DNA of 64,000 nt from a virus, in IMG/VR virus record IMGVR_UViG_3300045988_159421; one strand, 5' to 3'. The translations under genes were made by a program, and so were the position numbers. Positions 272 to 41,053 of the stretch are shown one piece after another. The notes under the pieces were generated by a model, which saw nothing but the letters and a program-made list of their open reading frames with translations, ran no database searches and was not told where the DNA came from. How positions within the stretch are numbered: the stretch's first letter is position 1; the number at the start of each line of letters is the position of its first letter.

Positions 272-853
272 TTATTGATATTCTTTCATTCTTCTAATTA
301 GTGTAGCTTTGCTTATTCCTGTTACTTCTGTAACTTGCTTATAACTCATGCCACTTTGCTTTAGATCAATGGCATGCTTAATTTGTTTGTTTGAATACTT
401 TTGCGGTCTACCTTCTGTAAAATCTTCTCTTTGTTTTGCTATCGCCTTACCTTCTTTTGTTCTTTCAACTATCATATCTCTTTCAAATTCAGCAAATGCA
501 AGGAAAATAGTTCTTGTTAATTTTCCATTAGGTGTATTATCCATTAATCCTAAGTTTACTATATGAACTTTTATATCTTGTTCTAGTAACTTATCTATTA
601 TGCTTAATCCGTGTATTGTACTTCTAGCAAATCTGTCTAATTTAGTTACTACTAATGTGTCTCCTGGTTTTAATTGTTTAAGAAGTTTATCGAAATTTTT
701 TCTATCTTCTTGTTTCTTTGTTCCAGTAAAAGAATCAACTACGATATTTTCTTTTAAACATCCATTTGCTAATAGTATTTCTGTTTGGCCTTCTAATGAG
801 TTACCATCTTTCTTTTGTGAATAAGTACTAACTCTTGCATATCCGTATTTCAT
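272..853 (-). CDS. Small serine recombinase (resolvase/invertase family)
   Basis: N-terminal YARVSTxxQ catalytic-serine motif, 193 aa, C-terminal HTH ([20 protein letters not shown]). TTTACA-17 nt-TACAAT promoter upstream. Confidence 0.9.
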
Positions 854-2758: not shown

Positions 2759-3220
2759 CTACGATATTTCACTATCTTTTATATCTATTACATTCCCTTC
2801 TATAACATCTGAATCATTAAAGTCATCCCAAGAAGGTTCATTATTATTTTCTTTTTCAGTTTCAGGAGTAATAACTGTTTTAGTTTCCACTTTTGAAATT
2901 GGAGCGCCAGCCAATCTATTAAGTAAGTATATGCTTGCATCTAGTCTAACCTTCTCGCTCTTAGCTGATCTTGATAGGTCGAGAATATTTTGTAAAAGTT
3001 GATTAGAGAATTTCATTATACGATTGTCAACTTTATTTTTAGCAACTTCATATTGTCTATCAAGTTCTTCCATGAATTCTGGTCTTTTCTTCCAGCGCAT
3101 TATAGTTTTTTCACAAACATCTAATTGGTCTGCTACTTCTTTATTAGTTGCACCATACACTAATAATTCTGCTGCAATTAATTGGTCTTCTGTTAACCTA
3201 GAATCTTTTTCTCGTGGCAT
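2759..3220 (-). CDS. HTH protein (terminase-small-subunit-like / phBC6A51-type HTH)
   Basis: N-terminal HTH LIAAELLVYGATNKEVADQLDVCEKTIMRWKKRPEF. ATG at 3220 sits behind a GGAGGG RBS. No large terminase gene is adjacent. Confidence 0.4.
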   Translation of the reverse strand: MPREKDSRLTEDQLIAAELLVYGATNKEVADQLDVCEKTIMRWKKRPEFMEELDRQYEVAKNKVDNRIMKFSNQLLQNILDLSRSAKSEKVRLDASIYLLNRLAGAPISKVETKTVITPETEKENNNEPSWDDFNDSDVIEGNVIDIKDSEIS

Positions 3221-3222
3221 AA

Positions 3223-3732
3223 TCAATTACCCTCCTTCCTTTTTATTTCTTCTCTTAAGTGATAATATAAAATTTTATGGACCATTGAAGGTGATTCTTT
3301 TCTATCACATGCAATAATATGAAGATTATCGAATTTGGCCATTAATGAAATTACCATAGCCGCGCTAGCGTTAGGATGAACATGGCTTATATATTCACCT
3401 TTTAAAAGTTTGATATAATAATCCTTGTCTTGTATAAGCAAGAATAATTTAACTCCTGCTTTTTTTGCTCTTTTTAGTTCTCTTATAAAACGGTTATCTT
3501 TATTTTCGTCTTTTATTGGATCCATTAAGTTTCCTAGCAGTTCATCTAATCCTGCTTTTCTTTCTATTAAAATATTAGGTATATATTCTCCTTGATATCT
3601 AATAGCATAATCTCCAGTATCTAATTTTTCTCTAGTGGCCTGTATTCCATTTTTTATAAGAGTGTCTTGGATTAATGTATCTTGTTCTCTTGTATCGCAT
3701 ATAATTTCGTAATCTTCATTTTTTATTTTCAT
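3223..3732 (-). CDS. ERCC4/Mus81-type nuclease domain protein
   Basis: DTREQ ... GDY ... IERKAGLDELLGNL matches the ERK-type ERCC4 nuclease motif. Confidence 0.55.
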   Translation of the reverse strand: MKIKNEDYEIICDTREQDTLIQDTLIKNGIQATREKLDTGDYAIRYQGEYIPNILIERKAGLDELLGNLMDPIKDENKDNRFIRELKRAKKAGVKLFLLIQDKDYYIKLLKGEYISHVHPNASAAMVISLMAKFDNLHIIACDRKESPSMVHKILYYHLREEIKRKEGN

Positions 3733-3996: not shown

Positions 3997-4911
3997 TTAT
4001 TTAAAAAAACAATAATTTATTATTTCTCTTATTTCTTCTGTGTTGTTTCCTCCCCAAATTACGAGAGGATTTATTATATAATAATCTTTTGTTTTTTCTC
4101 CTGCATATACTTTTGAGTATGCAAATAAATAATATTTATGCCCATCTACCTTTATATGAAATTTTCTCAAACTGTCTCTAAAAAGATACATTGAATTTTG
4201 TTTTGTACTTAACCCTAATAATTCACAAATATCTTTTAAACTTAATTTATCTAGCCTTCCAATATCAACTTCCAAAGGATTTTTACATAATATATTTAAT
4301 TTCCAATTTGCATAAGGTATTAATTGAAATACATAGGATAAAGTTTTATGCTGCCTAATTGTAGTATGTTCATACAAATATCTAGTTGTATTAATCATTA
4401 TTCTTACATACTCTTTATTTTTATAAAAATTTTCACCTTTACTAAAATACTTAGGATTTAGATAAAACTTTTCTTCTACTTCAAAAATAAGATTGTGTTT
4501 TTTCATATCACTTAAAAAAGCTAAAAAAGCATCTCTTTTTAATCCTAGTTTTTGTTGAATCTCTTTCTTTGTCATATGCTCTACTTTATTGTTTTTTTTA
4601 TGTAATATAAGCAAATTTTCTTTTCTGTCATTATAATCAATATATGTAGCTAAATAAATTATTCTTGCTATATTAGCTCTGTCAATATCCAAATCGTAGA
4701 AAAGTAACTTTTTATTTACATAAAACATATGAACAAAGCCTCCTTGCTTGTTGCAATACTTCTTTAAATCATTTTTTCTATTAATTAATCTTTTCTGTTT
4801 CGGAGTTAACTTTTTAGATTGTTTCTGAATAACTAACTCTTCATCATTTTCTATTTTAAAATTATCTAGGAGATCTTCTGTTTCTGAGTTTACTATTAAA
4901 ACATCTTTCAT
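3997..4911 (-). CDS. Hypothetical protein, possibly a winged-helix replication/regulatory protein
   Basis: Long ORF. ATG at 4911 sits behind an AAGGAG RBS. No diagnostic motif recognised. Confidence 0.5.
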   Translation of the reverse strand: MKDVLIVNSETEDLLDNFKIENDEELVIQKQSKKLTPKQKRLINRKNDLKKYCNKQGGFVHMFYVNKKLLFYDLDIDRANIARIIYLATYIDYNDRKENLLILHKKNNKVEHMTKKEIQQKLGLKRDAFLAFLSDMKKHNLIFEVEEKFYLNPKYFSKGENFYKNKEYVRIMINTTRYLYEHTTIRQHKTLSYVFQLIPYANWKLNILCKNPLEVDIGRLDKLSLKDICELLGLSTKQNSMYLFRDSLRKFHIKVDGHKYYLFAYSKVYAGEKTKDYYIINPLVIWGGNNTEEIREIINYCFFK

Positions 4912-5127
4912 TTCACATATCTCCTTTTTCAAAATAAAAAAGACAGTCCTGAAAAGACTGCCTTTACTTTGATACAATTAATGCATCTTAATATAATTAT
5001 AGCATACTTTTTTTAAGTTTTAAATGAATTTTAAATACAATGTTTTAATTTAATCAAGTTTTAATAAATAGCAAATTTTTGGTAATTTAAGCATGTTATA
5101 ATTGAAATAAAGGAGGTGTAACATTAA

Positions 5128-5862
5128 GTGAATAATACACAAATATTAGCTAAACACTGTAAAAAAGTTGAAGTAAAAGAACTTAAAGAAAAAGATAATT
5201 GTTTTTTGTGTGGTTGTGAAATAAAAAAAGGTATTCCTGTAAAAAAAGTTATCAGTAGTAATTTTACAAACTTTGAATTCTGTAAAAATATAAATGGTAA
5301 TAATTGCTGTCAAGATTGTGCATCAACTATAAAAAATGCTGATTTAAGAAAAAATAGCTTTGTTGCGGATAAAGATAATCTGTATTTGCTAAAGAAAAAC
5401 GATATAGAGAATTATTTATTTGACTTAGACAAATATGTAAAAGGTGAATTCGTAGTAGGCATTACTGTATCATTTAAAAAACATAATTCTTTTAGATGCA
5501 GAGTCAATCAAGACACTTTGAAGTATTATATAAGACAAGAAGACAAAGAATTTCTGTTTGATGTAAAAGAAATGAAATATTTGTATAGCAAACTTAATGA
5601 GGCTTATTTGCAATTTTCAAAAGATGAAATATTATCAGGAAACTATTCAACTATTGCTATTGAACAATTTGGATTAGATAAATTTATCGAATATGAAACT
5701 TTATTTAGAAAATACAGAAAATCATATCAATTTGAGCTACTTGTATATATTCTAAATTCAGAACGTAGAAATGAATATATAAAACAAAAACAGAAAGAAC
5801 AAAAAGAACAAGCAGCTAAATTAAAAGCTATTAAAAAGCAATCTAAAAAAGGGGGAAAATAA
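5128..5862 (+). CDS. csf1: Csf1-like (Cas8-like large subunit, type IV)
   Basis: First gene of the operon, GTG start behind an AAAGGAGGTG RBS. N-terminal Cys pairs CFLCGC ... CCQDC (zinc finger). The call rests on size and operon position. Confidence 0.5.
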   Translation: MNNTQILAKHCKKVEVKELKEKDNCFLCGCEIKKGIPVKKVISSNFTNFEFCKNINGNNCCQDCASTIKNADLRKNSFVADKDNLYLLKKNDIENYLFDLDKYVKGEFVVGITVSFKKHNSFRCRVNQDTLKYYIRQEDKEFLFDVKEMKYLYSKLNEAYLQFSKDEILSGNYSTIAIEQFGLDKFIEYETLFRKYRKSYQFELLVYILNSERRNEYIKQKQKEQKEQAAKLKAIKKQSKKGGK

Positions 5863-5863
5863 T

Positions 5864-6238
5864 ATGGATAAAAACATACAACAATATTGTGTTTCAACAT
5901 TATCTGAAATTTGGGCGCAAATAGATTGGGATAAAGTAAAAGGTAGCAGAGCACTTGGTATTTGGGATGAATTTACAGCTAAAGTAAAATCTACTGCTAT
6001 GACTACTACTAGTTATGAAACTTTTGTAGAAAAACTTTGTAGAAAAATGGACGTAAGAAGTTTAAGATTTGCTATGATTAGTGAAATTTCAGAATTGAGC
6101 GAAGATATAAAAAAACAAATATTAAAATGTTTTAGATCAGAAACTCAAATTATAATTTTGAAACTTAGACTTCAAAATCAAATAAGAAAAGAACAAATGC
6201 AAAGAGAAAAAGAAGCAGCTGCAAATAAGGAGGATTAG
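5864..6238 (+). CDS. cas11: Cas11-like small subunit
   Basis: 124 aa, helical and charged, 1-nt gap after csf1 and 3-nt gap before the Cas7-like gene. Call based on position and size only. Confidence 0.4.
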   Translation: MDKNIQQYCVSTLSEIWAQIDWDKVKGSRALGIWDEFTAKVKSTAMTTTSYETFVEKLCRKMDVRSLRFAMISEISELSEDIKKQILKCFRSETQIIILKLRLQNQIRKEQMQREKEAAANKED

Positions 6239-6241
6239 AGA

Positions 6242-7072
6242 ATGAAAAAAGATATAACATTAAAATTGTTAAGCCCGCTTATGCATTATGGGGACGAAAG
6301 AATGGGTACTATGCAAGTAGCTAGATGTATGAAATTTGAATATAACGGAGAATTTATAGATATACCAGTTTATAGTGGAAATGCTTTTAGAGGAATTATG
6401 AGACGTATTGCAATGAGAGATTTCTTAGAAAAAATAGACATAGCAGAAGAAGGCATAAGTCCTAAATTATATTATTTACTTTTCACAGGTGGAACTCTTA
6501 CAGGAGGCGGGCGCTTTTGTGAAATAGGTGAAAAAAGAGAAATGAGACGTTTATGTATTCCACTTAGTTTATTTGGAAGTGCAATTGGAGATCAAATTCC
6601 AGAAGGTAAAATGAAAGTCGGAATTTTCAAACCTATTTGCCAAGAAACAGCTGAGTATACAGGGAAACCTAGTAATGTATCTTTTTATGACATGTTAGAT
6701 GAAATATTCTATACTAGACACGATGATCTAAAATGCACTAATTATGATTTAATAAAAGATTCAGAAGATAAAAAGGATAAAAAAGATAATCCTGTTCAAA
6801 TGAAATATGAAATGCAAGCATTAAGTGCTGGAACTAACTTAGTTTCTTCAATTGTAATAGAAAATTCTAATGACATAGAAGAATCTTGCTTAGAATCTAT
6901 AATAGAAAAATTCAAAGAAATGCCTTTTATAGGTGGTAAAAGTGCTACAGGACATGGTGAAGTTGAAGTATTTTATGAAGGTAAAAAAGGTTCTGAGTTA
7001 TATTATAATCATCTAGAACAAAACAAAGATGAAATAAGGGAATGGCTTAGAAATTTAGAAGGGAAATTATAA
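6242..7072 (+). CDS. csf2: Csf2-like Cas7 backbone RAMP protein
   Basis: The motif VYSGNAFRGIMRR near the N-terminus and the FTGGTLTGG glycine loop are typical of Cas7/Csf2-family RAMPs. Confidence 0.65.
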   Translation: MKKDITLKLLSPLMHYGDERMGTMQVARCMKFEYNGEFIDIPVYSGNAFRGIMRRIAMRDFLEKIDIAEEGISPKLYYLLFTGGTLTGGGRFCEIGEKREMRRLCIPLSLFGSAIGDQIPEGKMKVGIFKPICQETAEYTGKPSNVSFYDMLDEIFYTRHDDLKCTNYDLIKDSEDKKDKKDNPVQMKYEMQALSAGTNLVSSIVIENSNDIEESCLESIIEKFKEMPFIGGKSATGHGEVEVFYEGKKGSELYYNHLEQNKDEIREWLRNLEGKL

Positions 7073-7074
7073 AA

Positions 7075-7863
7075 ATGACACTTGATAATTTCTTAGAAAT
7101 AGGTTCAATATGGTCTGCCTCTAATCAATTTCTCAGAAAATTACAAAACTCAAAAGAAATTGTTAAAGAACAACTATTAAAATATGATAAACCGTATATT
7201 TGTTTAAGTGGTGGTAAAGATAGTGTTGTAATGGCCTTTTTAATTGCTGATGTAATACAACATGATATAAAAGATTATAAAGGAGATATTATATTGTGGG
7301 GGCATGTTAGTGATGCATCTTATCCAGGAACAATTGAAACTATGGAAAAAGTATCTAGTCAAACTGGAATAAAACTTGTTCTAGATACTTCTCCAGTATC
7401 TGCTTTTGAAGTTTTGGACGATTCTGTTGTAAAGCAATTCGGTAAACAAGGTTATTTCTTTGATGCTATAGAAAATTGTATAAATACTTACGAAAGAAAT
7501 TTAAGTTTTATAGGTGTAAGAGCATATGAAAGTAGAAGAAGGATGAGAGCAGTAAAAGCTCATGGTATGACTTTTACTTCTAATGTACCTACATTCTGTA
7601 ATATATGCTATCCTCTTGCTTGGTATAAACTAGAGGACGTTGCAGCATTAACTTATATGTATAATACTCCTATTCACCCTGTTTACTCAAAAGTAGATAC
7701 TAGATTAAAATATAGTTGCACAGATGAAGGCTGGATAAGACTAGGTTATTTAACTGCTAAAGATTTGTTAAATCAAGGTTCTGCAGTATTTATAAAAAGA
7801 AATTATCCTGAGCAGTTTGAAAAGTTAGCTCAACATTATCCTGAAATAAGGAACTATATTTAA
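7075..7863 (+). CDS. PAPS-reductase family PP-loop protein (CysH-like)
   Basis: PP-loop LSGGKDSVV, about 260 aa, embedded between the cas7-like and cas5-like genes with a 2-nt gap. Confidence 0.65.
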   Translation: MTLDNFLEIGSIWSASNQFLRKLQNSKEIVKEQLLKYDKPYICLSGGKDSVVMAFLIADVIQHDIKDYKGDIILWGHVSDASYPGTIETMEKVSSQTGIKLVLDTSPVSAFEVLDDSVVKQFGKQGYFFDAIENCINTYERNLSFIGVRAYESRRRMRAVKAHGMTFTSNVPTFCNICYPLAWYKLEDVAALTYMYNTPIHPVYSKVDTRLKYSCTDEGWIRLGYLTAKDLLNQGSAVFIKRNYPEQFEKLAQHYPEIRNYI

Positions 7864-7880
7864 AAGGGGGTTGAAAATAT

Positions 7881-8582
7881 ATGTTTAAAAACTTCAAAGT
7901 AATAGCACATTTAGGAAGCCCTCTTTGTGCTATAGATGATATCATATTAGATTCTGTTATAAGTGCTGCAATGTACAAAGATTTACTTAAAGATGACTAT
8001 TATTTTGGTTCAAATAAGTACGGAACAAAAGAACAAATAGATAGTATGCTATCAACAATATTAGATAAGCAATATGGCATTTATTGTACAAGTTATGGTT
8101 TTGGAAATGACAGAGAAACTATTTCTAGTTGGTCCAAAAGGTTTGATGTAAAGAATGATGATCTAATAAAATTTACTGGAAAAGCTAAACATAGAGTTGA
8201 CTTAGGAGCTGGATACTTTAAAAATTATCATATACCTATAGTTTTAAAGTCAGTAAAGACTTTGACTTTCTATGTTAGAGGTGATATGGAAAGAATTAAA
8301 TATTTATTAGAAAATTATATTTTTTACCTTGGCAAAAAACCTTCACAAGGTTACGGAGAAATTAGATATTGGGAATTTGAAGAAATTAAAGATAATATAA
8401 GTGTATTAAATAAAGAAAATAAAAATATGAGAAATATTCCTTTTGATGAAATTAGTGATATACTCGAACAAAATGCTAGTACGAGTAAAAACAAATCAGA
8501 AGATTTTACATTTAATCTAAAAAAAATGCCAGTAATCCCACCTTATTGGAGACCAGATTGTAAAAAAGTTTGTGTGGTATAA
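7881..8582 (+). CDS. csf3: Csf3-like Cas5 RAMP protein
   Basis: N-terminal HLGSPLCAIDDIILDSVISAA and C-terminal glycine-rich GKKPSQGYGEI loop. Last gene of the operon, followed by a hairpin. Confidence 0.55.
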   Translation: MFKNFKVIAHLGSPLCAIDDIILDSVISAAMYKDLLKDDYYFGSNKYGTKEQIDSMLSTILDKQYGIYCTSYGFGNDRETISSWSKRFDVKNDDLIKFTGKAKHRVDLGAGYFKNYHIPIVLKSVKTLTFYVRGDMERIKYLLENYIFYLGKKPSQGYGEIRYWEFEEIKDNISVLNKENKNMRNIPFDEISDILEQNASTSKNKSEDFTFNLKKMPVIPPYWRPDCKKVCVV

Positions 8583-8610
8583 AATAAAAAGCTAGGAGAC
8601 TTAAAGCCTC

Positions 8611-8853
8611 TTAGCTTTCTTTACATTCATTTTCAATTATTCTATAAATATGTTCAGCCAACATTCTTTTACTTGGCTTACTAAGAAAAGTATCATATCT
8701 GTATAGAACTTTCTTACTTTTTAATAAATCAGAAATAACCATTCCTATTTCTATATTTCCGTTATTATAAATAATTCCCATTAAATAATCATCTTCTAAA
8801 TCACAAAATTCTTTTGCAATTTCATAGCATTTTCTTTTTGATATTTTTTTCAT
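8611..8853 (-). CDS. Hypothetical protein
   Basis: ORF with an RBS, convergent with csf3. Confidence 0.5.
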   Translation of the reverse strand: MKKISKRKCYEIAKEFCDLEDDYLMGIIYNNGNIEIGMVISDLLKSKKVLYRYDTFLSKPSKRMLAEHIYRIIENECKES

Positions 8854-9465: not shown

Positions 9466-9810
9466 TTAATTTTCCATTTTTCTTATAATTATTCTATCTC
9501 TATCAAATGATAACTCTATCTTTCTGTTTTCTTCATTGATTCCTAATTCATTTAACCAACTTTTAGGAATTGATGATACTCTAGCAGATGTATTTTTAAA
9601 CTCTGCTAATACGACTTTGTTTTTTATTAATTCAAAGAGTTTAACTCCTAGAATTTCCTCCAGTTGTTTTAAAGTTTCTGGTCTTGGAGTTCTATCTCCT
9701 CTTTCATATTTTTTTATAGTATCTACAGATACTTCTAACAACTCAGCAAGTCCTTTTTGAGTTAATCCCTTTTCTTTTCTTGCTGTTTTTATTTTTTCAC
9801 CCATTGTCAT
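9466..9810 (-). CDS. XRE-family HTH regulator with an AbrB/SpoVT-like C-terminus
   Basis: IKTARKEKGLTQKGLAELLEVSVDTIKKYERG HTH. The C-terminus ARVSSIPKSWLNELG is a swapped-hairpin-like segment. Confidence 0.6.
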   Translation of the reverse strand: MTMGEKIKTARKEKGLTQKGLAELLEVSVDTIKKYERGDRTPRPETLKQLEEILGVKLFELIKNKVVLAEFKNTSARVSSIPKSWLNELGINEENRKIELSFDRDRIIIRKMEN

Positions 9811-11258
9811 TGTTCTATCTCCTTTTCTATTTCTCTTAGAATTCTATCTCTATTTGTAGTATTTATATATCTTATTTTACTGTTTTTATCCTTATTTTCT
9901 ATAACTTTATAGTACATACCATGAGAATTTACTTTTGTATTTATGAATATGTAATTTTTACCTTTAAGTAAAGCAACATCAAAGTTTTCTACACCTGCAG
10001 CAATAAAGGTCCAATTAGGTAAAACTTCCTTCATTGTATTGATCCAGTTATTAGTTCCACCAAAACAAATAGCATTCAAATTATTTAACTTATCTATATC
10101 GACCTCATTATTAGTAGGCGGAGTATCTTCACAATTAGATAAATTAAACATTAAATTTCGTAACTGATGTAATTCATCTTCTACATCTGGTTGATTTTCG
10201 ATAGATTTTAATAAGTGATTATTTTTCTTTTCTAATCGAGTATTTTCTTCAACTAGTTTCTTAATCTCTTCGTCTAATTGTTTTTTTAGACGGGCATTTT
10301 CTTGTTTTAAGTCGTTATTTTCTTTTCTTACTCGACTTAATTCAGATTCTTTTTTCTCTATTAATTCTTTTAAATCCTCATTTAAATTAGAAAAACAATA
10401 TCTTTTAGCTTCTTTATATGCTTTAAGTAAATATCTAATTTGTAAAGCAGGACCTAAAAATTTATATAATTCTTTATAGTCCATTTCTTTATGTGTTAAA
10501 TTCCAACAACAAATTAATTCTTGAATTTCTTTATCTTTTAGTTCGTTATTTATCAAAGAAGGTAATGCTATATCCTCTAGATCATAAATATATTCAAACG
10601 AAACATTAAATATTTGTTCTTCTGTCATTTTTTCAAGCATAATTTTACCTTCTTCTAAAATTACATAAGTAAATCCGTTAAAATTAAATTCTGGATATAT
10701 GTTTTTAAATTTAAGTTCGATATCTTTTAACTCTTTTTTATCTTCTTTACTTATATTTTTATATAAAATTGGATAATCTTTTGCAAGATATTCATTTCTG
10801 ACTAATAGTGAATTACAAAAGTCTTGGTATAATCCATCATGAAAATTAATTTCTTTACCTTCTAATTGTGCTAAAACAAGTACCGCTAATAAAAATCCAT
10901 CTATTTCGTTATTTTTAAAAAATTTAGGATTATTTTGCTTTAAAAAATCACTCAAATTGACAATATTAGAGTTTTTAACTAATTGATTTGACTTTTTATA
11001 AGTCATTCTTAAAAGCCATGATGTGTTTTTTACATCATCATCTAAAATAATTCCCAATGCTTTTTTAAAATAAAACTCTTGTTCAATCGTTCCATCAAGC
11101 TCGATTTTGTAATATTTATGATTTCTAGCTAATTTAAGGTATTTCTCTTTATTTTGACTATATAGCTTATCTATATGTTTATAAGCTATTTTACTTGTTG
11201 CTAAAACTTCACATAAAAAATACGTGATATCTAATTCCATTCCCTTTCCTTCTTGCAT
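9807..11258 (-). CDS. Coiled-coil protein with a C-terminal DUF2325-like domain (tentative)
   Basis: Long heptad-rich centre. C-terminus ICFGGTNNW...FIAAG...INTKVNSHGMYYKV. 4-nt overlap with the downstream XRE gene. Confidence 0.45.
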   Translation of the reverse strand: MQEGKGMELDITYFLCEVLATSKIAYKHIDKLYSQNKEKYLKLARNHKYYKIELDGTIEQEFYFKKALGIILDDDVKNTSWLLRMTYKKSNQLVKNSNIVNLSDFLKQNNPKFFKNNEIDGFLLAVLVLAQLEGKEINFHDGLYQDFCNSLLVRNEYLAKDYPILYKNISKEDKKELKDIELKFKNIYPEFNFNGFTYVILEEGKIMLEKMTEEQIFNVSFEYIYDLEDIALPSLINNELKDKEIQELICCWNLTHKEMDYKELYKFLGPALQIRYLLKAYKEAKRYCFSNLNEDLKELIEKKESELSRVRKENNDLKQENARLKKQLDEEIKKLVEENTRLEKKNNHLLKSIENQPDVEDELHQLRNLMFNLSNCEDTPPTNNEVDIDKLNNLNAICFGGTNNWINTMKEVLPNWTFIAAGVENFDVALLKGKNYIFINTKVNSHGMYYKVIENKDKNSKIRYINTTNRDRILREIEKEIEQ

Positions 11259-12852: not shown

Positions 12853-14733
12853 CTAATCATATCCATGTTCTTTTTTAAATTCAATAAACCATTTTCTTAA
12901 AGCTAAGTATTTTTCTTCTCTAGTATCCACTTCTTCTTTTGTAGGTTTTCTACCACAACTATGCTTATTACCTTCGGGACAATATCCTAATTTTTCACAG
13001 TTAGGAACTAAATATGTTTTGTATCTCGGCTCTATTTCTACTACTTGTTTGACCATTTCTTTTACTATTGTTCTAATTGGCAACTCTGCTCGTGTGCAAA
13101 GTCGTATATTTGCTAGATGCATTAAACATTCTAGGTTAACTGCTATATTACATTCTGTTGCTACTCCAATAGGTAATATTGTTCTAGCTATCTCATTAGC
13201 TTTTTCTCCTGTTATACCACCATCTTCTAAGAAAGTTTGTATATAGTTATATTGGGCATTAACTATATCTTCTTGGTCTTTTATTGTCTTAACCATATAT
13301 GGACTATCTAGTAACTCTGGAGCTATATATATACTTACCTTTCCATCTTTATTACAATATCTTAAGCTTTGTACATTAGTTACAAATCCTTGTGTATGTC
13401 TTACTATCTGATCTACGCAATTTCCACACCAAACTGCTTTCCCATTTCTTCTTACAAATATTATATGGTTAGGAACATTTACACAATAAACTTGGCCTTC
13501 GTAATGTTTAACCGTTTTATGTTTTTTCAATGATACATGAGGGTATTTATTTCTAGTGTTGAAACTTACATTGATAACATATCCTACATAATTACATTTT
13601 ACTGTTTTGTTGCATATTTGTATTTTCTCACCAACCAAATTTTCATTTCTAGTGTATATCATTGCAGACCATCCTGCTAAAAAGCATAATTGTTGCAATT
13701 GATTAGCCAATATTTCGGAACAAGTATAAAATTTGCCACATCCATTTTTGTCTAAATGCCCATCTCCTCTGAAATATTCATTTAAGAAAATCTGAGCATA
13801 TTCTTTATTAAATTCATCATATATATTTAATGGTATATATTTGTTAGATGCAGTCCCTAATTGTTTTAAAAATTTGCCTAATGTTAAACTATTAAATCTT
13901 ATATCTCTATCTGTTACAGTTGGTGCAAATCCTAATTTTATTATTATGTCTTGTATATCTTCTTTTGTATGATTTTCTATATTTTTTTTACAATTTGTTT
14001 GTGATATTGAAATAACATATTTATTTTCTTTTTCGTTATAATATGTTGATCCATCAGATAAATACCATGCTAAAAATTTATAAAATGTTTTTCTATCTAA
14101 TTCTAAATCTCCAGTATACATATTACAATCTCCACCATTATTTGTTTTTTTCTTATATGTATAACCTTTAATTTTATATATATTCGGTAAATTATTTATA
14201 CCTTTATATTCAAATTCCTTTGTAAGTTTTATTCTATTTACATTTATATCCTTTATAGGTGTTAAATAAGTTTTATCCTTGTCTTTTCTAACATCATATT
14301 TTTTATAATATATATTATGGTTCTCAGTTATTGCAAGGTCGACATTTTCACTTTTAATAAAAAACATATTCCCATTATAGTTTTCCACTATTTTTTCTTT
14401 TATTTTATGAAATTCCACCTTTTTAGTTGTATCATTTAAAGTTGCTACTATTTCATCTTCTTTTATGTCTTTGATAAACTTCCAGCCTTCTAAGGTTAAT
14501 ATTTCAGTTTCTTCATCGTAACAACTTCTAGGTATATTTCTAAGAGTAAACCAAGCATATAAATGTCTACTTCCACTTAGATGTCCACTCTTAAGACAGC
14601 TTTCTCCAACTTTCTCTGCATATTTTGGATCAGTGTTATAACATACTGTAGCCATAAGGCCATGCTTTTTAACAAACTCTTTTACTTCTTCTGGGTTTTG
14701 TAGTTCTATTTTAAAATCATTTAGTGTAAACAT
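12853..14733 (-). CDS. thyX: ThyX-like flavin-dependent thymidylate synthase interrupted by an intein
   Basis: The exteins join to give ...[30 protein letters not shown], the ThyX RHR...SxRY region (here RHT). Confidence 0.75.
13420..14523 (-). mobile_element. Intein with a LAGLIDADG homing endonuclease domain (368 aa)
   Basis: Starts at Cys ([10 protein letters not shown]) and ends ...VWCGN, followed by a +1 Cys. Internal LAWYLSDGS and [11 protein letters not shown] blocks. Confidence 0.75.
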
Positions 14734-15495: not shown

Positions 15496-16803
15496 CTATA
15501 ATATAAGTTTAAAATCATCTAAATCAACTTCAAAGCCTTCTAGTTCAATACTTCTAGGTTTATCAATTAAATCAGGTGTCATAAAGAATGAAGTCATTTT
15601 CATATCCTTAGTAAATTTAGGTCTTTTAGTAGCATTTGTACCATATAATACTTTAGCTCTTAGTACTTCATAACTATAACCTTTGCCAGCCTTTTCAACA
15701 CTTTTAATAACGTTATTTATAGACTCTGTATAAGCGTTTGTATAAGGCTGTAAGAAATAATTGAATATTTCATGCTTATTATTGTTGTAAGTTCTTTGAA
15801 GGTCTTTAAAAGCTTTAAAATCATCTGGTATTCTACATTCCCATTCATAGTATCTTTGAAACGCTTCATATCTATCTTCTGATGTATAAATATCTCTTAT
15901 TGTTTCTTTTAACCAATATGCTACACCAAGCTCTGGGAACTCCTCAAACCAAGTATCTCTAAGTATTATGTCTTTTTCTTTTAGGTCTTCTTTATTTTTT
16001 AATAATACCCATCTGTCATTTGTTAAAATTCGTTTCCTATCATTAGGCAAATTAGATTTAACTTGTTTTCTAACAGTATCTAAAGCTCTTTGAGCATATT
16101 GGATAACGTGAAATTTATCAACTACTACAGTAGCACTAGGTATTAATTCTCTACAAGCATATCTATAACCACTCCACATATCTATTGTAACTACTTCTAT
16201 ATCCTTATAACCTTCCATGCTCTGAATTGTATTTTTAACAGTTTTTTTAAGATTGTCTTCGGTTATTTCAAGTAATTTATTATTTTCTGTGTCTGTGAAT
16301 ACACCTCTCATTTTCTTATTTAAATGAGCCTCATCTATTCCTAATACTCTAGGTGCTTTTATAATTCTATCTGCATCTAATCTAGCTATTTCTTCTTTAA
16401 AATATTTTCTTACTGAAGTATGAGATAGTCCACAATCATATCCTACTTCTAAAAATGGCTTCCTAAGGCTTTGTTGTTGAATATATTGCTTTAGTCTAAG
16501 AGTAACTTTATCATTTCTCTCAATACTGTAGAAAGGCTGATAAAAGGTTTTACCACAACAAGGACATTTATATCTGATATGTTTTAAAACTAATATAACT
16601 GGTTTTCCATGAATAGGTATATCTTGAATTTCTCTTTCCTTACTACTATGTATCGTAAAATTCCTTGTATCTCCCATAACAGGTGCTTCATCCCATAAAC
16701 ATTGGGTACATACTATTGGTCTTTCTTTTGCTACGATTGTAAACTTATAATAATATTCATTTTCTTCTTTTTTAATTACTTCAAATTCTGGTAAATTTAA
16801 CAT
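15496..16803 (-). CDS. ISL3-family transposase homologue (no terminal inverted repeats seen)
   Basis: N-terminal zinc finger (CTQC...CPCCG), GIDEAH, VTIDMW, VDKFHV and NAYTESINNVIK blocks typical of DDE_Tnp_ISL3. Confidence 0.75.
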   Translation of the reverse strand: MLNLPEFEVIKKEENEYYYKFTIVAKERPIVCTQCLWDEAPVMGDTRNFTIHSSKEREIQDIPIHGKPVILVLKHIRYKCPCCGKTFYQPFYSIERNDKVTLRLKQYIQQQSLRKPFLEVGYDCGLSHTSVRKYFKEEIARLDADRIIKAPRVLGIDEAHLNKKMRGVFTDTENNKLLEITEDNLKKTVKNTIQSMEGYKDIEVVTIDMWSGYRYACRELIPSATVVVDKFHVIQYAQRALDTVRKQVKSNLPNDRKRILTNDRWVLLKNKEDLKEKDIILRDTWFEEFPELGVAYWLKETIRDIYTSEDRYEAFQRYYEWECRIPDDFKAFKDLQRTYNNNKHEIFNYFLQPYTNAYTESINNVIKSVEKAGKGYSYEVLRAKVLYGTNATKRPKFTKDMKMTSFFMTPDLIDKPRSIELEGFEVDLDDFKLIL

Positions 16804-18801: not shown

Positions 18802-19791
18802 CTAAAAGAAACTAAGTTGATTATATTGAACTTTTGCTTTTACCCAAGGTCCATATTCTTCAAAATTTGTACACTTTTTATAAATTCTGCTATTAACCCA
18901 TCTAGCAAAATGTTTAAGTCTTAAATCTGGTATTTGATTATAAATCATTACAAAAGGGTCTACCTTTAAGGAAGTTAACGTTCTAAATCTGTACATATCT
19001 TCCTCGAAAGTAGTGTTATATCCAACTAGCATAAAACACATATGTTTATACTTCTTCACATGCTTACTAAGTGTTTCAATACCTTCTAGGACTTTTCTTT
19101 CGTGTCCCATTAAATCCCAAGCATAGTGTAAACTTCTTAAATGTTTTACTTGTCCTAACCAGTAAGCCTTTTCATCTGTCATAAGCCTTACATCGCAGCC
19201 TTGATTTATATCGACTTTTAATTTTCGTTCTTTTATTTCTTTTAACTTGTCGATACAATACGGATCGGCAGTAAAGTTGTTATCATGCAAGATTAATACA
19301 TTACTTTTAGGATTAAGTAAATCACTTATTTCAGCTACATCATGAAACTCACCTTCTTTTTCTGGTACAAAGCAAAATCCACAATTTCTTACACAACCTC
19401 TAGATGTATATCCCATACCAGCCTCTACAATTTCTTTTGCCTTTTTTCTTTTATGTTCCTTCGTTCCAATACCTTTCATTCTGCTAGCTATTTCTTCGAT
19501 GCTATATAGCTCATAATCTGGTCTAAGTTTTTCAATTTCATCAGGCAAAGTCTTTTTTATATCCCAGCCTGTTCCACCGATTTCTATTTTATCTTCATAT
19601 TTGTTTGCTAAATCTTCACAAATTAATTTACTTCTAGTAAAGATTGCACTAGCAAATATTTTTTCATATTCTTTTCCTTCTTGCACAAACTCGACTGTTT
19701 CTCCGATTGATTTGTAATAAGTTGAAAGTTTCATAAGTGCAAGATTAGGAATTTTACTATCTACATCTATTAATCCAATCATTTTATTCAC
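18802..19791 (-). CDS. Radical SAM protein
   Basis: CVRNCGFC (CX3CX2C) cluster motif. Confidence 0.65.
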   Translation of the reverse strand: MNKMIGLIDVDSKIPNLALMKLSTYYKSIGETVEFVQEGKEYEKIFASAIFTRSKLICEDLANKYEDKIEIGGTGWDIKKTLPDEIEKLRPDYELYSIEEIASRMKGIGTKEHKRKKAKEIVEAGMGYTSRGCVRNCGFCFVPEKEGEFHDVAEISDLLNPKSNVLILHDNNFTADPYCIDKLKEIKERKLKVDINQGCDVRLMTDEKAYWLGQVKHLRSLHYAWDLMGHERKVLEGIETLSKHVKKYKHMCFMLVGYNTTFEEDMYRFRTLTSLKVDPFVMIYNQIPDLRLKHFARWVNSRIYKKCTNFEEYGPWVKAKVQYNQLSFF

Positions 19792-25043: not shown

Positions 25044-26291
25044 TTATATCACACTATCTAACCAATAAATTTTATTATATTTCCAAAGTAATCTACATTT
25101 TCTTACATTTACTTTTTTGCAATGTTTTGTAGGACTTTGAAAATTTAATGCGTTCAAATGTGGATATAATGCTGTAACATATCCTTTATGAGTTTCTCCA
25201 TTTCTGTAAGTATATTCAACCAAATCTCTATGTTTAATTCCTAATACATTATCTGTTTTTGCTTTTGATTTTCTACGCATCGGTTTAATCATCCATTCTT
25301 TTATATTGCAAGTATCTGGAAAACAATTTGTTATACAAATAGCATCGTTTGAATGAGATTTTTCTATATTCCATTCAATTCTTTTATTTGCAGTATCTCC
25401 ACCTGTTGTAAGATGTAATATTCCTAATTGTTTAATATTTTCTCTAAGATAATTTTTACCTTGCATGACATGCATTGCATAATCAAATCTTTTTGGCTTA
25501 CTTTTTATTTTGGTGAAATATCTCTCTTCAAATTCTCGTTCTTTCCCTTCTGTCTTTTGATGACAAGAAGAACAAAGAGTAATGAGATTCCCAATAGTAT
25601 TTGCTCCACCAAATCTCTTTGCTCGAATATGATGAACCTCAAGTACAGTATTTGTTTTTCCACATTCTTGACATTTACAACTATCTCTTAATATTGTCGC
25701 TTTTCTAAGATTTTCATCTAATCTATTATTCTTCTGATATTGCCAATTATAAGGTTTATATCCATCGGTCATTGCTCTTATATCTATTGCTACATCTTCA
25801 AGATAATATTCTTTAATATTTATCCATTTATTTAATTGATATAAAACTCTAAGAATAGAATCTTTCTTTTGTTTAATACTTGGCGCTAATCTATTAGTTT
25901 TTTTTGAAGATGCTCTATTATTGAATCTAGGTTTACGATATCTTTTATGATATCTACGGTATTGTCTATATCCTCTACGAACATCCATTAAGTGTTTTAC
26001 ATCTTGTCTTTGTTCAATAGTTCCTTTAAATACAACTTTATTTTTACTTGGACATTTTTGAACAATTGCTATTCCAACATGAGAACTACCATCGTCAATT
26101 CCACAAACCATATGACTTTCATCTTCGTCATCAGGTTCAACTTCTTTTTCTAACTGAATTACCATAGGATATTTACTTTTTAATTTTGCTCGACCTTTTC
26201 TAATCAAATACCAACCTTTATTTACTTTAGTTGGAGCTAAAGGTCTATTGTTTTTATCTACAACAAAACAATATTCAATTTTATTTTCCAT
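25044..26291 (-). CDS. iscB: IscB-type RNA-guided nuclease (RuvC with HNH insertion)
   Basis: N-terminal NRPLAP (PLMP-like). Ruv[14 protein letters not shown]. Arg-rich bridge [30 protein letters not shown]...HHI...N...LCSSCH. Ruv[13 protein letters not shown]. Confidence 0.75.
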
Positions 26292-29203: not shown

Positions 29204-29632
29204 TTAAAAAGGTATGTCATCATCATCTATAGCTTGAAATCCATTTGGATCTAACCCTGGATTTGTTATATTATTTGTTCCTTGTTGATTATCTTTCGGA
29301 TAATCTAATGCTTGTACACTTCTACCACTAACCTTAGTAAAAGTTCTATTTTCTCCATCTTGAGTTTGATATCTATCAACTCTAAGATTTCCTTGAATAG
29401 CAACTAATCTACCTTTTGTTATATAATTAGCACAAAATTCAGCTGCTTTCCCTATAACTTCTATTGGTATAAAGTCTGTTTCTTTTGTCCCATCTTTTTT
29501 CTTATAGTCTCTGTCTATTGCCATCGTAAAAGTAGCAACAGGTGTTCCAGAATTAGGTATGTATCTTAACTCTGGGTCTTTTGTTAATCGTCCTACTAAA
29601 ACTACATTATTCATCTTTACCTTTCCTTTCAC
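29204..29632 (-). CDS. ssb: Single-stranded DNA-binding protein
   Basis: OB-fold N-terminus NNVVLVGRLTKDPELRY and acidic tail DDDIPF. Confidence 0.9.
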   Translation of the reverse strand: MKGKVKMNNVVLVGRLTKDPELRYIPNSGTPVATFTMAIDRDYKKKDGTKETDFIPIEVIGKAAEFCANYITKGRLVAIQGNLRVDRYQTQDGENRTFTKVSGRSVQALDYPKDNQQGTNNITNPGLDPNGFQAIDDDDIPF

Positions 29633-30206
29633 TAACTTTCATTATTAATTTAGCTATATTTGAACCCGTTTTCGTCAATTCTTTATCATGAAAAATTAAT
29701 TTTTCATGGTTCATTCTTAGTAATTGACTTTTATTAATTAATATTAAATTATCTTTTTCTAAGTTCAATTTGTTTTGATCAGCAAATATAACTACATCAT
29801 CTTGTGTTAATTTGATATTATGATATTTTTCATATAGAATCCTATGCTTCAACTTCCACACATTAGGTTCTTTTACTTTCATTAGAATATATCCATTACT
29901 ATCAATTCTTTCACTACCAATTTCTTTTTTATTCCAAGGTTTACAACCTTTTTGAAAAGAAGTTTTATTTGGACCAGTAAGTCCTTTAGTTCCTTTATTC
30001 CACGTTTTATGTCCCTTTTGAAACTGGCCATCAAACTCTGTGTTATATCCATATCTTTTAATTGCACTTGTTATTTGACTTAGTTTGAATTTATACTCAA
30101 ATTTTTCGTTCATTAAGTCTAATATTTCCTTACGATGTTTCCCTGGAGTAATTTCTCCAAGATACTTTTTTTCTTCTTCACTCCATTTATGTGGTTTTTC
30201 GCTCAT
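29607..30206 (-). CDS. HNH homing endonuclease
   Basis: Repeated GHKTWNKG / GCKPWNKK modules and an NGYILMK...HRILYEK HNH_3-like core. Confidence 0.6.
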   Translation of the reverse strand: MSEKPHKWSEEEKKYLGEITPGKHRKEILDLMNEKFEYKFKLSQITSAIKRYGYNTEFDGQFQKGHKTWNKGTKGLTGPNKTSFQKGCKPWNKKEIGSERIDSNGYILMKVKEPNVWKLKHRILYEKYHNIKLTQDDVVIFADQNKLNLEKDNLILINKSQLLRMNHEKLIFHDKELTKTGSNIAKLIMKVSERKGKDE

Positions 30207-30451: not shown

Positions 30452-31135
30452 TTAAACCCCCTTAGTTATTCTCATATTCGGTACATTTTTAAACTCGATT
30501 ATATTTTCTCTACACATTTCTATGATTCTACTAGTTATAGCAGCATCATAATTCATCAATTCATCTAGTGATTTTTCTGTACTTACTATAATCGGTTTTT
30601 CTGTCATGTAACGATAATTTATTATTTCATAGATATACTTTCTATCAGCTTCGCTTGTTTGACCTTTGAGTAAATCATCAACGAATAGCACAGTGCAATT
30701 CTTATACTGGTCTATTTCTTTGTTGTAATTAATTGGATCCATACAACATTGTTTTAGTTTCATAATTAAGCTAACATATTCAGCATATCTACATCCTACA
30801 TTTTGATTTACGAGTTGCATCATCATTGCAATTCCTAAATGGGTTTTTCCCGTTCCTGGTTTTCCAGTTAATAAGAAACTACCCTTTTCCTCTTTAAACT
30901 TCTTACAGTAGCTCATGGCTCGTAATTTTGCCTGTTTCTGATGCTCTGTATCTGTTTTGAAGTTTAAAAAAGTTTTCTTTTTAAAAGAATCCGTTAGGCC
31001 ACATCTTTCTAACTTTTCTTTTATGTGTCTTTTCTTGATACATTCACAAGGAACGGCTTGAGTATAGCCTTCTTTATCTTCTTGTAAAGTGTACCCTAAA
31101 TCTCTACACTTCTCACATTGATATTCTATAGCCAT
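30452..31135 (-). CDS. DnaC/IstB-like helicase-loader ATPase
   Basis: Walker A GKPGTGKTHL, Walker B LFVDDL, N-terminal Cys cluster. Confidence 0.75.
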   Translation of the reverse strand: MAIEYQCEKCRDLGYTLQEDKEGYTQAVPCECIKKRHIKEKLERCGLTDSFKKKTFLNFKTDTEHQKQAKLRAMSYCKKFKEEKGSFLLTGKPGTGKTHLGIAMMMQLVNQNVGCRYAEYVSLIMKLKQCCMDPINYNKEIDQYKNCTVLFVDDLLKGQTSEADRKYIYEIINYRYMTEKPIIVSTEKSLDELMNYDAAITSRIIEMCRENIIEFKNVPNMRITKGV

Positions 31136-32073
31136 TTTTCTATGCTGCCGCCTCCCATTTCATCTAATTCTTTTTGTAATTCGTCTATTTCATCTAAGTC
31201 ATCTTGACTTACTGGTTTCATTTTCTCGGGATCTATATAACCTTGATATTTTTGTAAGTCCTCTAATATGTTTGAATTGTTATTGTCTTGATGTTTATTT
31301 GAGTTGTAGTTACTGAAGTTGTCTTTTAGTGGAAAAACTCCTTGCCAACAATTTTCAATCGAGTTTTCCAGTATTTTTATTTTGATATCATCTGTTGTTG
31401 CTAACTTATCTAGTTTATTTAGTATTCCTTTTAAGGCTCTTTCTGTAACAGGCTTTTTAATGCTCTTTCGCATTTTCATAAAATCTATTATTGTTTCCTG
31501 TAAGAAAGAGTTAGAAGTATACTCATTTATAAGAACATCTAAATCAGTTCTTTTTTTCTTTTTTTCTTTTTTATTAAGACTGTTATTATTAACACTATTA
31601 ATATTTAAACTGTTATTATTAAGACTGTTAATATTAGTGTATTCGTTTTCGAGATATTCATTTTCGATATCTTTATTTTCGTGATATTCATTTTCGATAT
31701 CTTTATTTTCGTGATATTCATTTTCGATATCTCTAAAATTAATACATCGGTCTCTTTCATCCATTATGATTTCATATATATTTTTTGCTTTTAAATTACC
31801 TGATTTTATTCTTTCTACTTTTATGTACCCGGATTCTTTTAATGTTTTTAAGTGTTTAGTAAATCTATTGATTGAGATTCCTAATTCTTCACACATTAAA
31901 TCTCTACTTGGATAACATGTTTTTTTATCTCCAGCGAAGGCTATTAAATATGCATAAATTGCTTTTGCCTCAATTGAAAGATTCTTATCTCTCATAACTA
32001 TCTTAGGTATTATTCCATACCCATCACGTAAAATACTATTTTTGTTGTATTTTACCTCCATTGAATCTGTCAT
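31126..32073 (-). CDS. Phage replication initiator (winged helix plus DnaD-like C-terminus)
   Basis: N-terminal wHTH (IPKIVMRDKNLSIEAKAIYAYL...). Internal repeats. Overlaps the dnaC-like gene. Confidence 0.55.
   Translation of the reverse strand: MTDSMEVKYNKNSILRDGYGIIPKIVMRDKNLSIEAKAIYAYLIAFAGDKKTCYPSRDLMCEELGISINRFTKHLKTLKESGYIKVERIKSGNLKAKNIYEIIMDERDRCINFRDIENEYHENKDIENEYHENKDIENEYLENEYTNINSLNNNSLNINSVNNNSLNKKEKKKKRTDLDVLINEYTSNSFLQETIIDFMKMRKSIKKPVTERALKGILNKLDKLATTDDIKIKILENSIENCWQGVFPLKDNFSNYNSNKHQDNNNSNILEDLQKYQGYIDPEKMKPVSQDDLDEIDELQKELDEMGGGSIEKWL
31651..31740. repeat. Three tandem 30-bp repeats inside the initiator gene (candidate origin iterons)
   Basis: G(A/T)GATATTCATTTTCGATATCTTTATTTTC three times (third copy diverges at its end). 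Encodes DIENEYHENK repeats. Confidence 0.7.
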
Positions 32074-33927: not shown

Positions 33928-34086
33928 TATATTTTTAGGGTATGAAACTATAACTGTAGATTAATAAGAAAACGTACTTTGACAAGTGAATATAAAATTT
34001 ATTACTTAAAATAACTTTAACTGTGGAAATTATAACTTTAATTGTGGTATAATAAGGTATATTTATTAAAGGAGGAAGATTCTTTT

Positions 34087-34641: not shown

Positions 34642-34642
34642 T

Positions 34643-40710: not shown

Positions 40711-40722
40711 AGGTGATTAATT

Positions 40723-41016
40723 ATGGCAAAAAAATCAAGTACAGTATATATAGAAGAAAATTTTTGGGATATGATAAGCAAGTTTCAAGCAGAAAGAGAT
40801 TTATCAAGCAGAAATGATGCAATACAAGTAATATTAAGTGAGTGGAATATCCTAAAACAAATTGACTTCAACAATATACAAGTTAATGTAAATATCGGTG
40901 ATGTTTCACAAGTTGTTAGACAAATAGAAAATACAGAACTAACAAAAGAAGAAAATGAAGACCAAAGAATTATAAAAGAAACTCTTCTTAAAATGGAAGA
41001 AGAAATGCCTGATTAA
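40723..41016 (+). CDS. parR: ParR-position adaptor protein (RHH-like N-terminus)
   Basis: 97 aa, immediately after parM, with an acidic C-terminus. Confidence 0.4.
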   Translation: MAKKSSTVYIEENFWDMISKFQAERDLSSRNDAIQVILSEWNILKQIDFNNIQVNVNIGDVSQVVRQIENTELTKEENEDQRIIKETLLKMEEEMPD

Positions 41017-41019
41017 AAA

Positions 41020-41053
41020 GATAAGCTAAGGTTTCAGATAGCCTTAGCTTTTT
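41020..41053 (+). terminator. Rho-independent terminator of the par operon
   Basis: AAGCTAAGG-loop-CCTTAGCTT plus a T run. Confidence 0.7.

Follow-up and report, generated by a model that had tools for sequence, protein, structure and literature searches.

What does a CRISPR-Cas effector operon do for a virus when no CRISPR array comes with it? The question is raised by five tightly packed, plus-strand open reading frames (ORFs) at 5128-8582 of IMG/VR virus record IMGVR_UViG_3300045988_159421, of which we analyzed a stretch of 64,000 nucleotides (the window); the remaining 8 kb or so of the replicon, like the entire host genome, lie outside this 64-kb stretch. A first-pass annotation, made from the sequence, had placed the ORFs exactly, including the intergenic gaps of 1, 3, 2, and 17 nt, and had assigned them to subtype IV-B. 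We find that the locus is an intact and complete type IV-B effector operon without an array. Its combination of csf1, cas11, csf2, csf3, and a cysH-like gene, in a locus devoid of any array, cas6, helicase, or adaptation gene, is the published definition of IV-B (PMC7038947, PMC8175902, PMC7937560), so that the subtype call stands and the locus adds one more example of a gene combination already defined. How the operon might work is suggested mainly by its relatives, in some of which the place of the cysH-like gene is taken by other enzymes.

The identity of the Cas subunits is evident from type IV profiles, which match all three of the proteins on which the first-pass annotation had staked its reading, namely Csf1, Csf2, and Csf3 (E = 3e-29, 1e-61, and 2e-43). 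Csf1 matches the PADLOC profile Csf1_0_IV (E = 3.1e-29, residues 17-213) and, under its curated cutoff, NCBIfam TIGR03114 (E = 1.6e-10). The two cysteine pairs noticed in this 244-aa protein are C25-x2-C28 and C61-x2-C64, a CxxC...CxxC arrangement of the zinc-finger type that is also kept in the related loci L014 and L015. The helical protein of Cas11 size is indeed Cas11 (PADLOC Cas11_1_IV, E = 3.2e-20; Cas11_0_IV, E = 3.9e-14), and it is the type IV Cas11 that sets IV-B and IV-C apart from IV-A. The RAMP protein carrying SGNAFRGIMRR is Csf2/Cas7 (PADLOC Csf2_0_IV, E = 1.3e-61); its best match in the PDB is 7JHY, the Mycobacterium type IV-B Csf2 (E = 1.7e-14), followed by the recently deposited "Cas7c" chain C of 11fs, 11hc, and 11hd (E = 8.8e-13, nearly full length). 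The second RAMP protein is Csf3 (PADLOC Csf3_0_IV, E = 2.3e-43; NCBIfam TIGR03116, E = 3.1e-11, under its cutoff). Its glycine-rich loop GKKPSQGYGEI is present as described, but at about residues 151-161 of 233 and not at the extreme C-terminus. The NCBIfam models for Csf1, Csf2, and Csf3 are trained on IV-A and give 41-43 bits against cutoffs of 130-140 (about 1e-10). None of the four Cas proteins had a significant match in Pfam (that of Csf2 to RAMP is sub-threshold), and phmmer against the PDB found no relatives of Csf1, Cas11, Csf3, or the CysH-like protein. Because the NCBIfam scores fall so far under their cutoffs, the identification of the Cas proteins stands on the PADLOC profiles, the match to 7JHY, and the gene content. 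In comparison with two relatives, the ratio of nonsynonymous to synonymous substitution (dN/dS) is 0.08-0.15 for csf1, 0.04-0.14 for cas11, 0.10 for csf2, 0.08-0.10 for the CysH-like gene, and 0.07-0.14 for csf3. All five genes of the operon are under strong purifying selection (dN/dS 0.04-0.15).

The reported absence of an array, cas6, cas1, cas2, and dinG from the 64 kb is borne out within the repeat, tblastn, and profile searches that were run. Tandem Repeats Finder, a repeat finder, and a custom scan (24-mers, up to 3 mismatches, spacing 40-120 nt) found no CRISPR array or mini-array in the window, the matches being coding repeats and replication iterons only, and Rfam reported a tRNA and a group I intron and nothing else. 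With five Cas6 proteins and one HD domain from relatives as queries, tblastn gave no match in the window. No Cas1, Cas2, or DinG/helicase was found among the window ORFs scanned with profiles, which were most of those longer than 150 aa; the scans left out 56190-58205 (671 aa, in the tail module), a few ORFs of 150-180 aa, and some small ORFs. Three large ORFs belong to no recognized family. Two of them, searched with Pfam, PHROGs, and NCBIfam (9807-11258 and 43535-45745), match only PHROGs of unknown function, the former with one additional sub-threshold NCBIfam match, and the third, 49990-51852, gave no match to Pfam, the sole library run on it. Annotated phages and plasmids gave no match to the operon at the DNA level.

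The fourth gene encodes a protein that had been read as a PAPS-reductase-type enzyme with an SGGKDS motif. The motif lies at residues 45-50, and Pfam PAPS_reduct confirms the family (E = 5.8e-9, 36.7 bits against a cutoff of 22.5); the protein, also known as CasCysH, matches phrog_2302 as well (E = 2.8e-27) and the DndC profiles of PADLOC marginally (E = 0.003). Across 47 CysH-like homologs, S45-G-G-K-D-S50, H77, S79, R149, E152, S153, R155, R156, H201, P202, Y204, and R222 are invariant, and there is neither an invariant cysteine nor an Fe-S cysteine cluster. The AlphaFold2 (AF2) model, with a predicted local distance difference test score (pLDDT) of 90.2, has an adenine-nucleotide alpha-hydrolase (PP-loop) fold, and Foldseek relates it to the tRNA thiolases NcsA/TtuA and to APS/PAPS reductases (E about 1e-8 for both groups), and also to FMN adenylyltransferase. 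The ATP site of the enzyme looks intact and not decayed. Since no cysteine is conserved and no Fe-S cysteine cluster is present, sulfur chemistry appears unlikely; and since the PP-loop ATP site is kept whereas the cysteine of true PAPS reductases and DndC is missing, the enzyme most likely activates its substrate by adenylation and not by sulfonucleotide reduction. The invariant PP-loop and the missing conserved cysteine agree with the published view that CasCysH retains nucleotide binding but not the cysteine chemistry of CysH or DndC, for which adenylation has been proposed (PMC8175902).

Is the location of this gene inside the operon peculiar to the window? Its position between the cas7 and cas5 genes is real but is a property of the clade, since related viral contigs keep the order csf1-cas11-csf2-cysH-csf3 even where the identity in Csf2 has dropped to about 60%. 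Stoichiometric co-expression, which had been concluded from this position, does not follow from a shared operon, because Cas7 and Cas11 are present in multiple copies in the solved complex (PMC7937560); co-transcription is what the order implies. In a sister clade of phage loci the order is csf1-cas11-csf2-csf3-(cas6)-cysH, and other (pro)phages encode CysH-like proteins 42-47% identical to that of the window within their csf operons, usually adjoining terminase genes. On the actinobacterial Rhodococcus plasmid pFiD188, unlike in the window with its cysH between csf2 and csf3, cysH lies apart from the csf operon and on the opposite strand. An order csf2-cas6-cysH-csf3 considered for a Thermococcus plasmid was dropped, as the "Cas6" matches the Csf3 profile and the order is thus csf2-csf3-cysH; the gene at 5806-6567 of this Thermococcus nautili plasmid (L001), a "CRISPR-associated endoribonuclease Cas6" in RefSeq, is perhaps a misannotated Csf3 (Cas5). 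Over 150 clusters (90% identity) make up the Csf2 family, and 185 the CysH-like family. Type IV-B has been known from plasmids, prophages, some lytic phages, and an archaeal virus (PMC7038947, PMC10848311, PMC11656645). In the present searches it is abundant on Firmicutes (pro)phages, and a scan of genome contigs found a single chromosomal relative, in Alkalithermobacter.

We surveyed the slot between csf2 and csf3 in 50 loci, using locally built profiles and checking representative genes with Pfam. In the Csf2 clade of the window, the slot is occupied either by the window-type CysH or by a second CysH lineage that is only 26-28% identical to it. Other loci of this clade carry the second CysH lineage together with a pair of IbrA-like (PAPS_reduct + DUF3440) and ParB-like genes, one of them (L026) being the chromosomal locus of Alkalithermobacter thermoalcaliphilus; CysH with an HD domain, free or fused to Csf3; or an unnamed protein of about 220-250 aa, here called slotX, which is followed by QueT in two loci (L027 and L028). 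CysH and slotX were never found together in any surveyed locus. These slot types interleave on the Csf2 tree. Loci L017 (slotX) and L016 (CysH with HD-Csf3) share 95% identity in Csf2 and 90% in Csf3, and loci L041 (CysH type 2) and L040 (CysH type 1) share 96% identity in Csf2 and 97% in Csf3, while their CysH proteins are 26% identical. The accessory slot has been exchanged repeatedly and recently between nearly identical effector modules. The survey also showed cas6 directly after csf3 in five relatives, with no CRISPR array within the flanks examined, and an HD domain fused to Csf3 in two relatives, some others having a free HD protein. The presence of cas6 without a nearby array hints that CRISPR RNA (crRNA) is provided in trans or that the substrates contain a single repeat. 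Two rearrangements were observed in addition. In L029 (3664-7016), directly upstream of terminase genes, a 445-aa protein that appears to be a Csf2-Cas11 fusion, since it matches the profiles of both, precedes slotX, csf3, and csf1, in that order. A conserved protein of about 100 aa, read as helix-turn-helix (HTH)-like, shifts its position between the cysH-csf3 gap and the end of csf3 and is not part of the operon in the window.

We then asked what slotX might be. The family is unannotated, with 114 representatives among 1.84 billion proteins, and PHROGs, the PDB sequence profile search, and tblastn against phages were all empty; the window has no slotX by tblastn. The AF2 model is a confident TIM barrel (pLDDT 92.7) whose beta/alpha pattern has eight strands. 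Among the viral structures of BFVD, the top match and 8 of the top 31 matches are annotated as queuine tRNA-ribosyltransferase (best E = 7.7e-9), which is the usual label of phage DpdA-type enzymes. An invariant LDSGAF motif (D62-S-G-A65), which fits the DSGxF pattern with the catalytic Asp of the DpdA/TGT superfamily, aligns with the LDSGAF of phage 9g DpdA. The match to this protein has an E value of 1.2e-3 as a single sequence and of 5.3e-5 (67% probability) in hhalign with a 10-sequence DpdA profile, and a deep profile search yielded one borderline bridge sequence to Pfam DpdA. These results, taken with the QueT gene inside the operon, suggest that slotX is probably a DpdA/TGT-like transglycosylase. 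Because the test with the curated TGT/DpdA models failed, we call it DpdA-like and not a member of the family.

A mechanism could be proposed from these observations together with the IV-B complex that has been solved. The Mycobacterium IV-B complex is a ribonucleoprotein (RNP) on heterogeneous RNA of uniform length, about 55-60 nt (PMC7937560). By homology, an RNA of about 55-60 nt would be enclosed by intertwined filaments of the Csf2 and Cas11 of the window, with Csf3 and Csf1 as caps. The bound RNA would not be a self-made crRNA, because array and Cas6 are both missing from the window. The RNP may then offer the accessory enzyme a nucleic acid, bound or base-paired, that the enzyme modifies chemically, as is suggested by the slot enzymes of close relatives, which come from nucleic-acid-modifying families: the PAPS-reductase-like proteins are akin to DndC, SspD, BrxP, and IbrA, the TGT-like proteins to DpdA, and the ParB-like proteins to DpdB and IbrB (PMC12839542). 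In the window, the CysH-like enzyme would carry out the modification by ATP-dependent adenylation. Rather than providing adaptive immunity, the operon would act in the conflicts of the phage-plasmid with host defenses or with mobile elements that compete with it; such a role in anti-defense or inter-element competition is the weakest step of the mechanism. Taken as a whole, the reading of the locus as a IV-B operon whose RNP offers nucleic acid to an accessory modifying enzyme, in the service of conflict between elements, seems probable to us. A bolder version, in which the IV-B RNP is a targeting or scaffolding module for interchangeable enzymes and serves RNA-templated marking of RNA or DNA instead of interference, is doubtful. 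The marking would consist of AMP-dependent modification or, in the slotX loci, of 7-deazaguanine insertion, QueT being a transporter of preQ0/preQ1; no link between IV-B and 7-deazaguanine was found in the literature searched.

Several points weigh against the reading that we prefer. As late as 2025, reviews treat the function of IV-B as uncharacterized (PMC11656645, PMC12669027), and one describes the CysH-like protein as an inactivated derivative of a reductase (PMC11656645). The slot is empty in one locus (L045) and elsewhere takes cargo with no evident link to nucleic acids (extra ORFs in L041), so it could be merely an insertion hot spot. A Pfam TGT or DpdA match was obtained for none of 38 slotX members, and Foldseek of slotX against the PDB gives generic TIM barrels only. 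The cas6 genes and Csf3-fused HD domains of relatives fit guided interference equally well. In that case, crRNAs from host arrays would be loaded in trans, with silencing of complementary targets on rival elements or on the host either by binding, as in IV-A, or by RNA cleavage at the aspartate of Csf2, and it is with this trans-loading model that the cas6 and HD variants agree best among the rival explanations. Asp18 of Csf2, in an HYGDER loop, is invariant among 23 homologs; Asp42 of the Mycobacterium Csf2 has been discussed (PMC7937560), and the HYGDER loop, judged by its position without an alignment, may be the counterpart of the putative catalytic loop. Type IV-A works by transcriptional interference (PMC12669027). 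Yet cas6 and HD are both absent from the window by tblastn, the Mycobacterium complex did not load co-expressed I-E crRNAs (PMC7937560), IV-B mostly occurs without other CRISPR systems (PMC7038947), and the CysH-like enzyme is left without a role, so that we regard trans-loaded interference as rather unlikely. That the RNA in the Mycobacterium complex is heterogeneous but uniform in length (PMC7937560) also agrees with a sponge for guide RNAs, an anti-CRISPR in which the Csf filament sequesters host crRNAs or other small guides unspecifically, shielding the phage-plasmid from RNA-guided defenses of the host, and the CysH-like protein is secondary. This idea has been raised before, and IV-B is negatively correlated with other CRISPR-Cas types (PMC7038947, PMC8175902); the lack of an array and cas6, and the location on a mobile element, a natural target for hosts, are in keeping with it. 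What a sponge leaves unexplained is a near-invariant CysH-like gene as constrained as this one (dN/dS 0.08-0.10, with invariant ATP-site residues) and the refilling of the slot with other catalytic enzymes, and its own proposers judged a five-gene anti-CRISPR unlikely (PMC7038947). We likewise consider it improbable.

If the slot genes were independent cargo, that is, stand-alone phage modification or anti-restriction genes in a permissive hot spot and uncoupled from the Csf proteins, then their great diversity and the empty slot of L045 would be easily understood, and PAPS-reductase-like genes (phrog_2302, phrog_424) are indeed common auxiliary genes of phages. However, the association with cysH is nearly invariant throughout IV-B, with cysH co-diversifying with the subtype (PMC7038947), and it persists with cysH on either side of csf3 as well as with cysH outside the operon. 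In the three contexts checked, CysH-like relatives of 42-47% identity occur only in csf operons, and the mutual exclusion of CysH and slotX holds in all surveyed loci. Uncoupled cargo is thus very improbable in our view. The array, adaptation genes, and a nuclease are missing, as might be expected of a decaying, non-functional remnant that has lost its array, but the five ORFs are intact and the same five-gene unit is kept in many viral contigs down to about 60% identity. We rejected decay on the dN/dS values of all five genes and find it scarcely credible.

How the operon is expressed can be judged from its layout (Table 1). The GTG at 5128 is the earliest possible start of csf1 because in-frame stop codons lie at 5119-5121 and 5125-5127, and every downstream gene is preceded by a Shine-Dalgarno sequence of its own. 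The TGnTATAAT promoter reported ahead of csf1 is present as an element, and promoters with an extended -10 get by without a good -35; the sigma-70-type match farther upstream is the stronger and fuller of the two. Shuffled sequence yields promoter-like matches at least as often as this region does, so both sites are plausible but unproven. A terminator scan placed a minus-strand site at 8610-8596, within the hairpin that follows csf3, and this hairpin is a probable bidirectional intrinsic terminator ending both the operon and the convergent gene, the plus-strand half being what we infer. The operon is oriented against the direction of its neighbors. As had been noted of the early region, the first 32 kb have no other large block on the plus strand, and the GC skew flips its sign from about -0.27 in the flanks to +0.25 across 6001-8000. 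A 326-aa ORF (3997-4977) is divergent from the operon as described, but the replication or winged-HTH identity suggested for it could not be shown: it matches only phrog_9501, of unknown function, and no Pfam or NCBIfam family. A hairpin with a 12-bp stem (4939-4965) lies between the divergent promoters and the probable ATG (about 4911) of this minus-strand gene; it has a terminator score, yet its position is that of a 5′ leader.

Table 1. Positions of features in the window and in related loci (L numbers)
Feature	Position	Strand	Remarks
Serine recombinase/invertase	272-853		193 aa
Small terminase	2759-3226		
Candidate sigma-70-type promoter, TTGATA-17-TATAAT	4969-4997	+	11/12 consensus, about 130 nt 5′ of csf1
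Extended -10, TGtTATAAT	5094-5102	+	Seen directly in the sequence; no good -35
Shine-Dalgarno sequence of csf1, AGGAGG	5111-5116	+	11 nt ahead of the GTG start
csf1, Cas8-like type IV large subunit	5128-5862	+	244 aa, GTG start
cas11, type IV small subunit	5864-6238	+	124 aa
csf2, Cas7 backbone subunit	6242-7072	+	276 aa
CysH-like (CasCysH) PP-loop ATP alpha-hydrolase	7075-7863	+	262 aa
csf3, Cas5 subunit	7881-8582	+	233 aa
Hairpin with T-runs on both strands	8589-8622 (approx.)		Between convergent csf3 and a minus-strand 80-aa gene
Iterons of 15 and 30 bp	31572-31735		Inside the O-like replication-initiator gene 31126-32073
Second initiator, DnaD-like	38005-39174		
Actin-like ALP_N partition protein	39787-40710		
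Four perfect tandem 11-bp copies of TTATCGGTCGC	41159-41202		Likely centromere site
Endolysin	41214-42092		
Tail endopeptidase	51864-56189		
Tape measure, two reading frames	58198-61272 and 62844-63599	-	
IbrA-like + ParB-like pair	L014; L026 9885-11874; L043 3606-5173		Between the CysH-like gene and csf3
slotX genes	L015 8858-9604; L017 781-1506; L027 5001-5684; L029 5001-5666; also L028, L047-L049		
QueT (queuosine-precursor transporter)	L027 5669-6136		Inside the operon
HD (Csf3-fused or free) or cas6 genes, i	L016 6434-7642, 7593-8312; L018 3004-4161; L040 7615-8025		
HD (Csf3-fused or free) or cas6 genes, ii	L013 8056-8754; L015 10869-11612; L041 9841-10566		
HTH-like-read protein of about 100 aa	L019 6868-7177; L011 9589-9895; L015 10281-10601		

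The element that carries the operon is a tailed phage of a low-GC Firmicute with a plasmid-type partition system. Its description as a phage-plasmid is well supported by structural, packaging, and lysis genes on the one hand and by partition and replication genes on the other, as seen in the window, with about 8 kb of the genome beyond it. Besides the genes in Table 1, the window encodes RecT, an SbcC-like protein, and a DnaC-like loader, and its replication initiators are accompanied by iterons. The region 39787-41202, with the ALP_N protein, a 97-aa downstream gene, and the 11-bp repeats, looks like a ParMRC-type cassette, and the iteron region is likely the origin of replication. No integrase was seen in the window, the only recombinase-type genes being the serine recombinase/invertase and transposases of the insertion sequence (IS) type; more distant relatives are integrated prophages. 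Near-identical IMG/VR contigs are 64-72 kb in length, and the closest named Csf2 is from a Terrisporobacter metagenome-assembled genome (88% identity). The host is probably one of the Peptostreptococcaceae, such as Terrisporobacter. Genes for 7-deazaguanine synthesis were considered in this phage and rejected, as a radical-SAM protein (18802-19791) and its neighbors have no Que-family match.

The genome in the window is heavily colonized by selfish elements. A group I intron (62679-62950, minus strand; Rfam, 105 bits) interrupts the tape-measure gene, and an ORF just downstream of the intron match (61467-62420, minus strand) has a treble-clef zinc finger and is a probable homing endonuclease, which we take as part of the same insertion. 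A 626-aa ThyX-type thymidylate synthase gene (12853-14733, minus strand) has Thy1 segments at both ends and LAGLIDADG in the middle of the protein, a layout suggestive of an intein or of a homing endonuclease inserted there. Three more genes of homing-endonuclease type were found on the minus strand (954-2219, 25044-26291, and 29607-30206), one of which matches both GIY-YIG and HNH and two HNH. The phrog_5749 transposase is present in two copies (15496-16803, minus strand; 34042-35956, plus strand), and the plus-strand copy has a 199-aa partner gene upstream and forms an island of positive GC skew.

In its gene content the operon resembles the IV-B locus of the Mycobacterium sp. JS623 megaplasmid (7JHY; PMC7937560), which also has csf1, cas11, csf2, csf3, and an associated cysH-like gene and lacks an array, Cas6, helicase, and adaptation genes. 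The sequence similarity to the actinobacterial systems is nevertheless distant (about 25-30% identity between the Csf2 of the window and those of Rhodococcus plasmids, by tblastn), and an actinobacterial megaplasmid is a different carrier from a phage of a low-GC Firmicute. The IV-B loci of Firmicutes (pro)phages (a Heyndrickxia coagulans prophage, L023, and the metagenomic L020-L025) are closer, being virus-borne, array-less, located near packaging genes like the operon of the window, and equipped with CysH-like proteins of 42-47% identity; they differ in that cysH follows csf3 and that several reside on integrase-bearing prophages and not on a partition-bearing phage-plasmid. The archaeal Fuxivirus IV-B is likewise a virus-borne, array-less system (PMC10848311). 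Type IV-A shares the homologous Csf1, Csf2, and Csf3 core as well as being mobile-element-borne, nuclease-free, and engaged in inter-element conflict, but differs in possessing an array, Cas6/Csf5, and the DinG helicase and in lacking Cas11 and CysH. The CysH-like enzyme has the PP-loop alpha-hydrolase fold and the SGGxDS motif in common with DndC, SspD, BrxP of BREX type 4, IbrA, TtuA/NcsA, and TilS, but unlike the DNA-modification enzymes of the PAPS-reductase family it has no conserved cysteine or Fe-S cysteine cluster. Similarly, slotX of the relatives is like DpdA of the Dpd system in its TIM barrel, the LDSGAF of phage 9g DpdA, and a QueT neighbor, but is shorter (about 220-250 aa) and lies in a csf operon instead of a que/dpd cluster.

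As to the RNA that it uses and the function that it serves, IV-B is the least understood of the CRISPR-Cas subtypes. The operon described here is compact (3.5 kb), is under strong purifying selection, and resides on a phage-plasmid of about 64-72 kb, so that it could be cleanly cloned and deleted. Its relatives amount to a natural swap series, in which near-identical Csf modules are combined with exchanged accessory enzymes or with none, and this makes the role of CasCysH experimentally approachable. The locus leaves the classification of type IV unchanged and is of modest interest in that respect; the exchange of accessory enzymes, including a DpdA-like protein with QueT, is a lead worth following.

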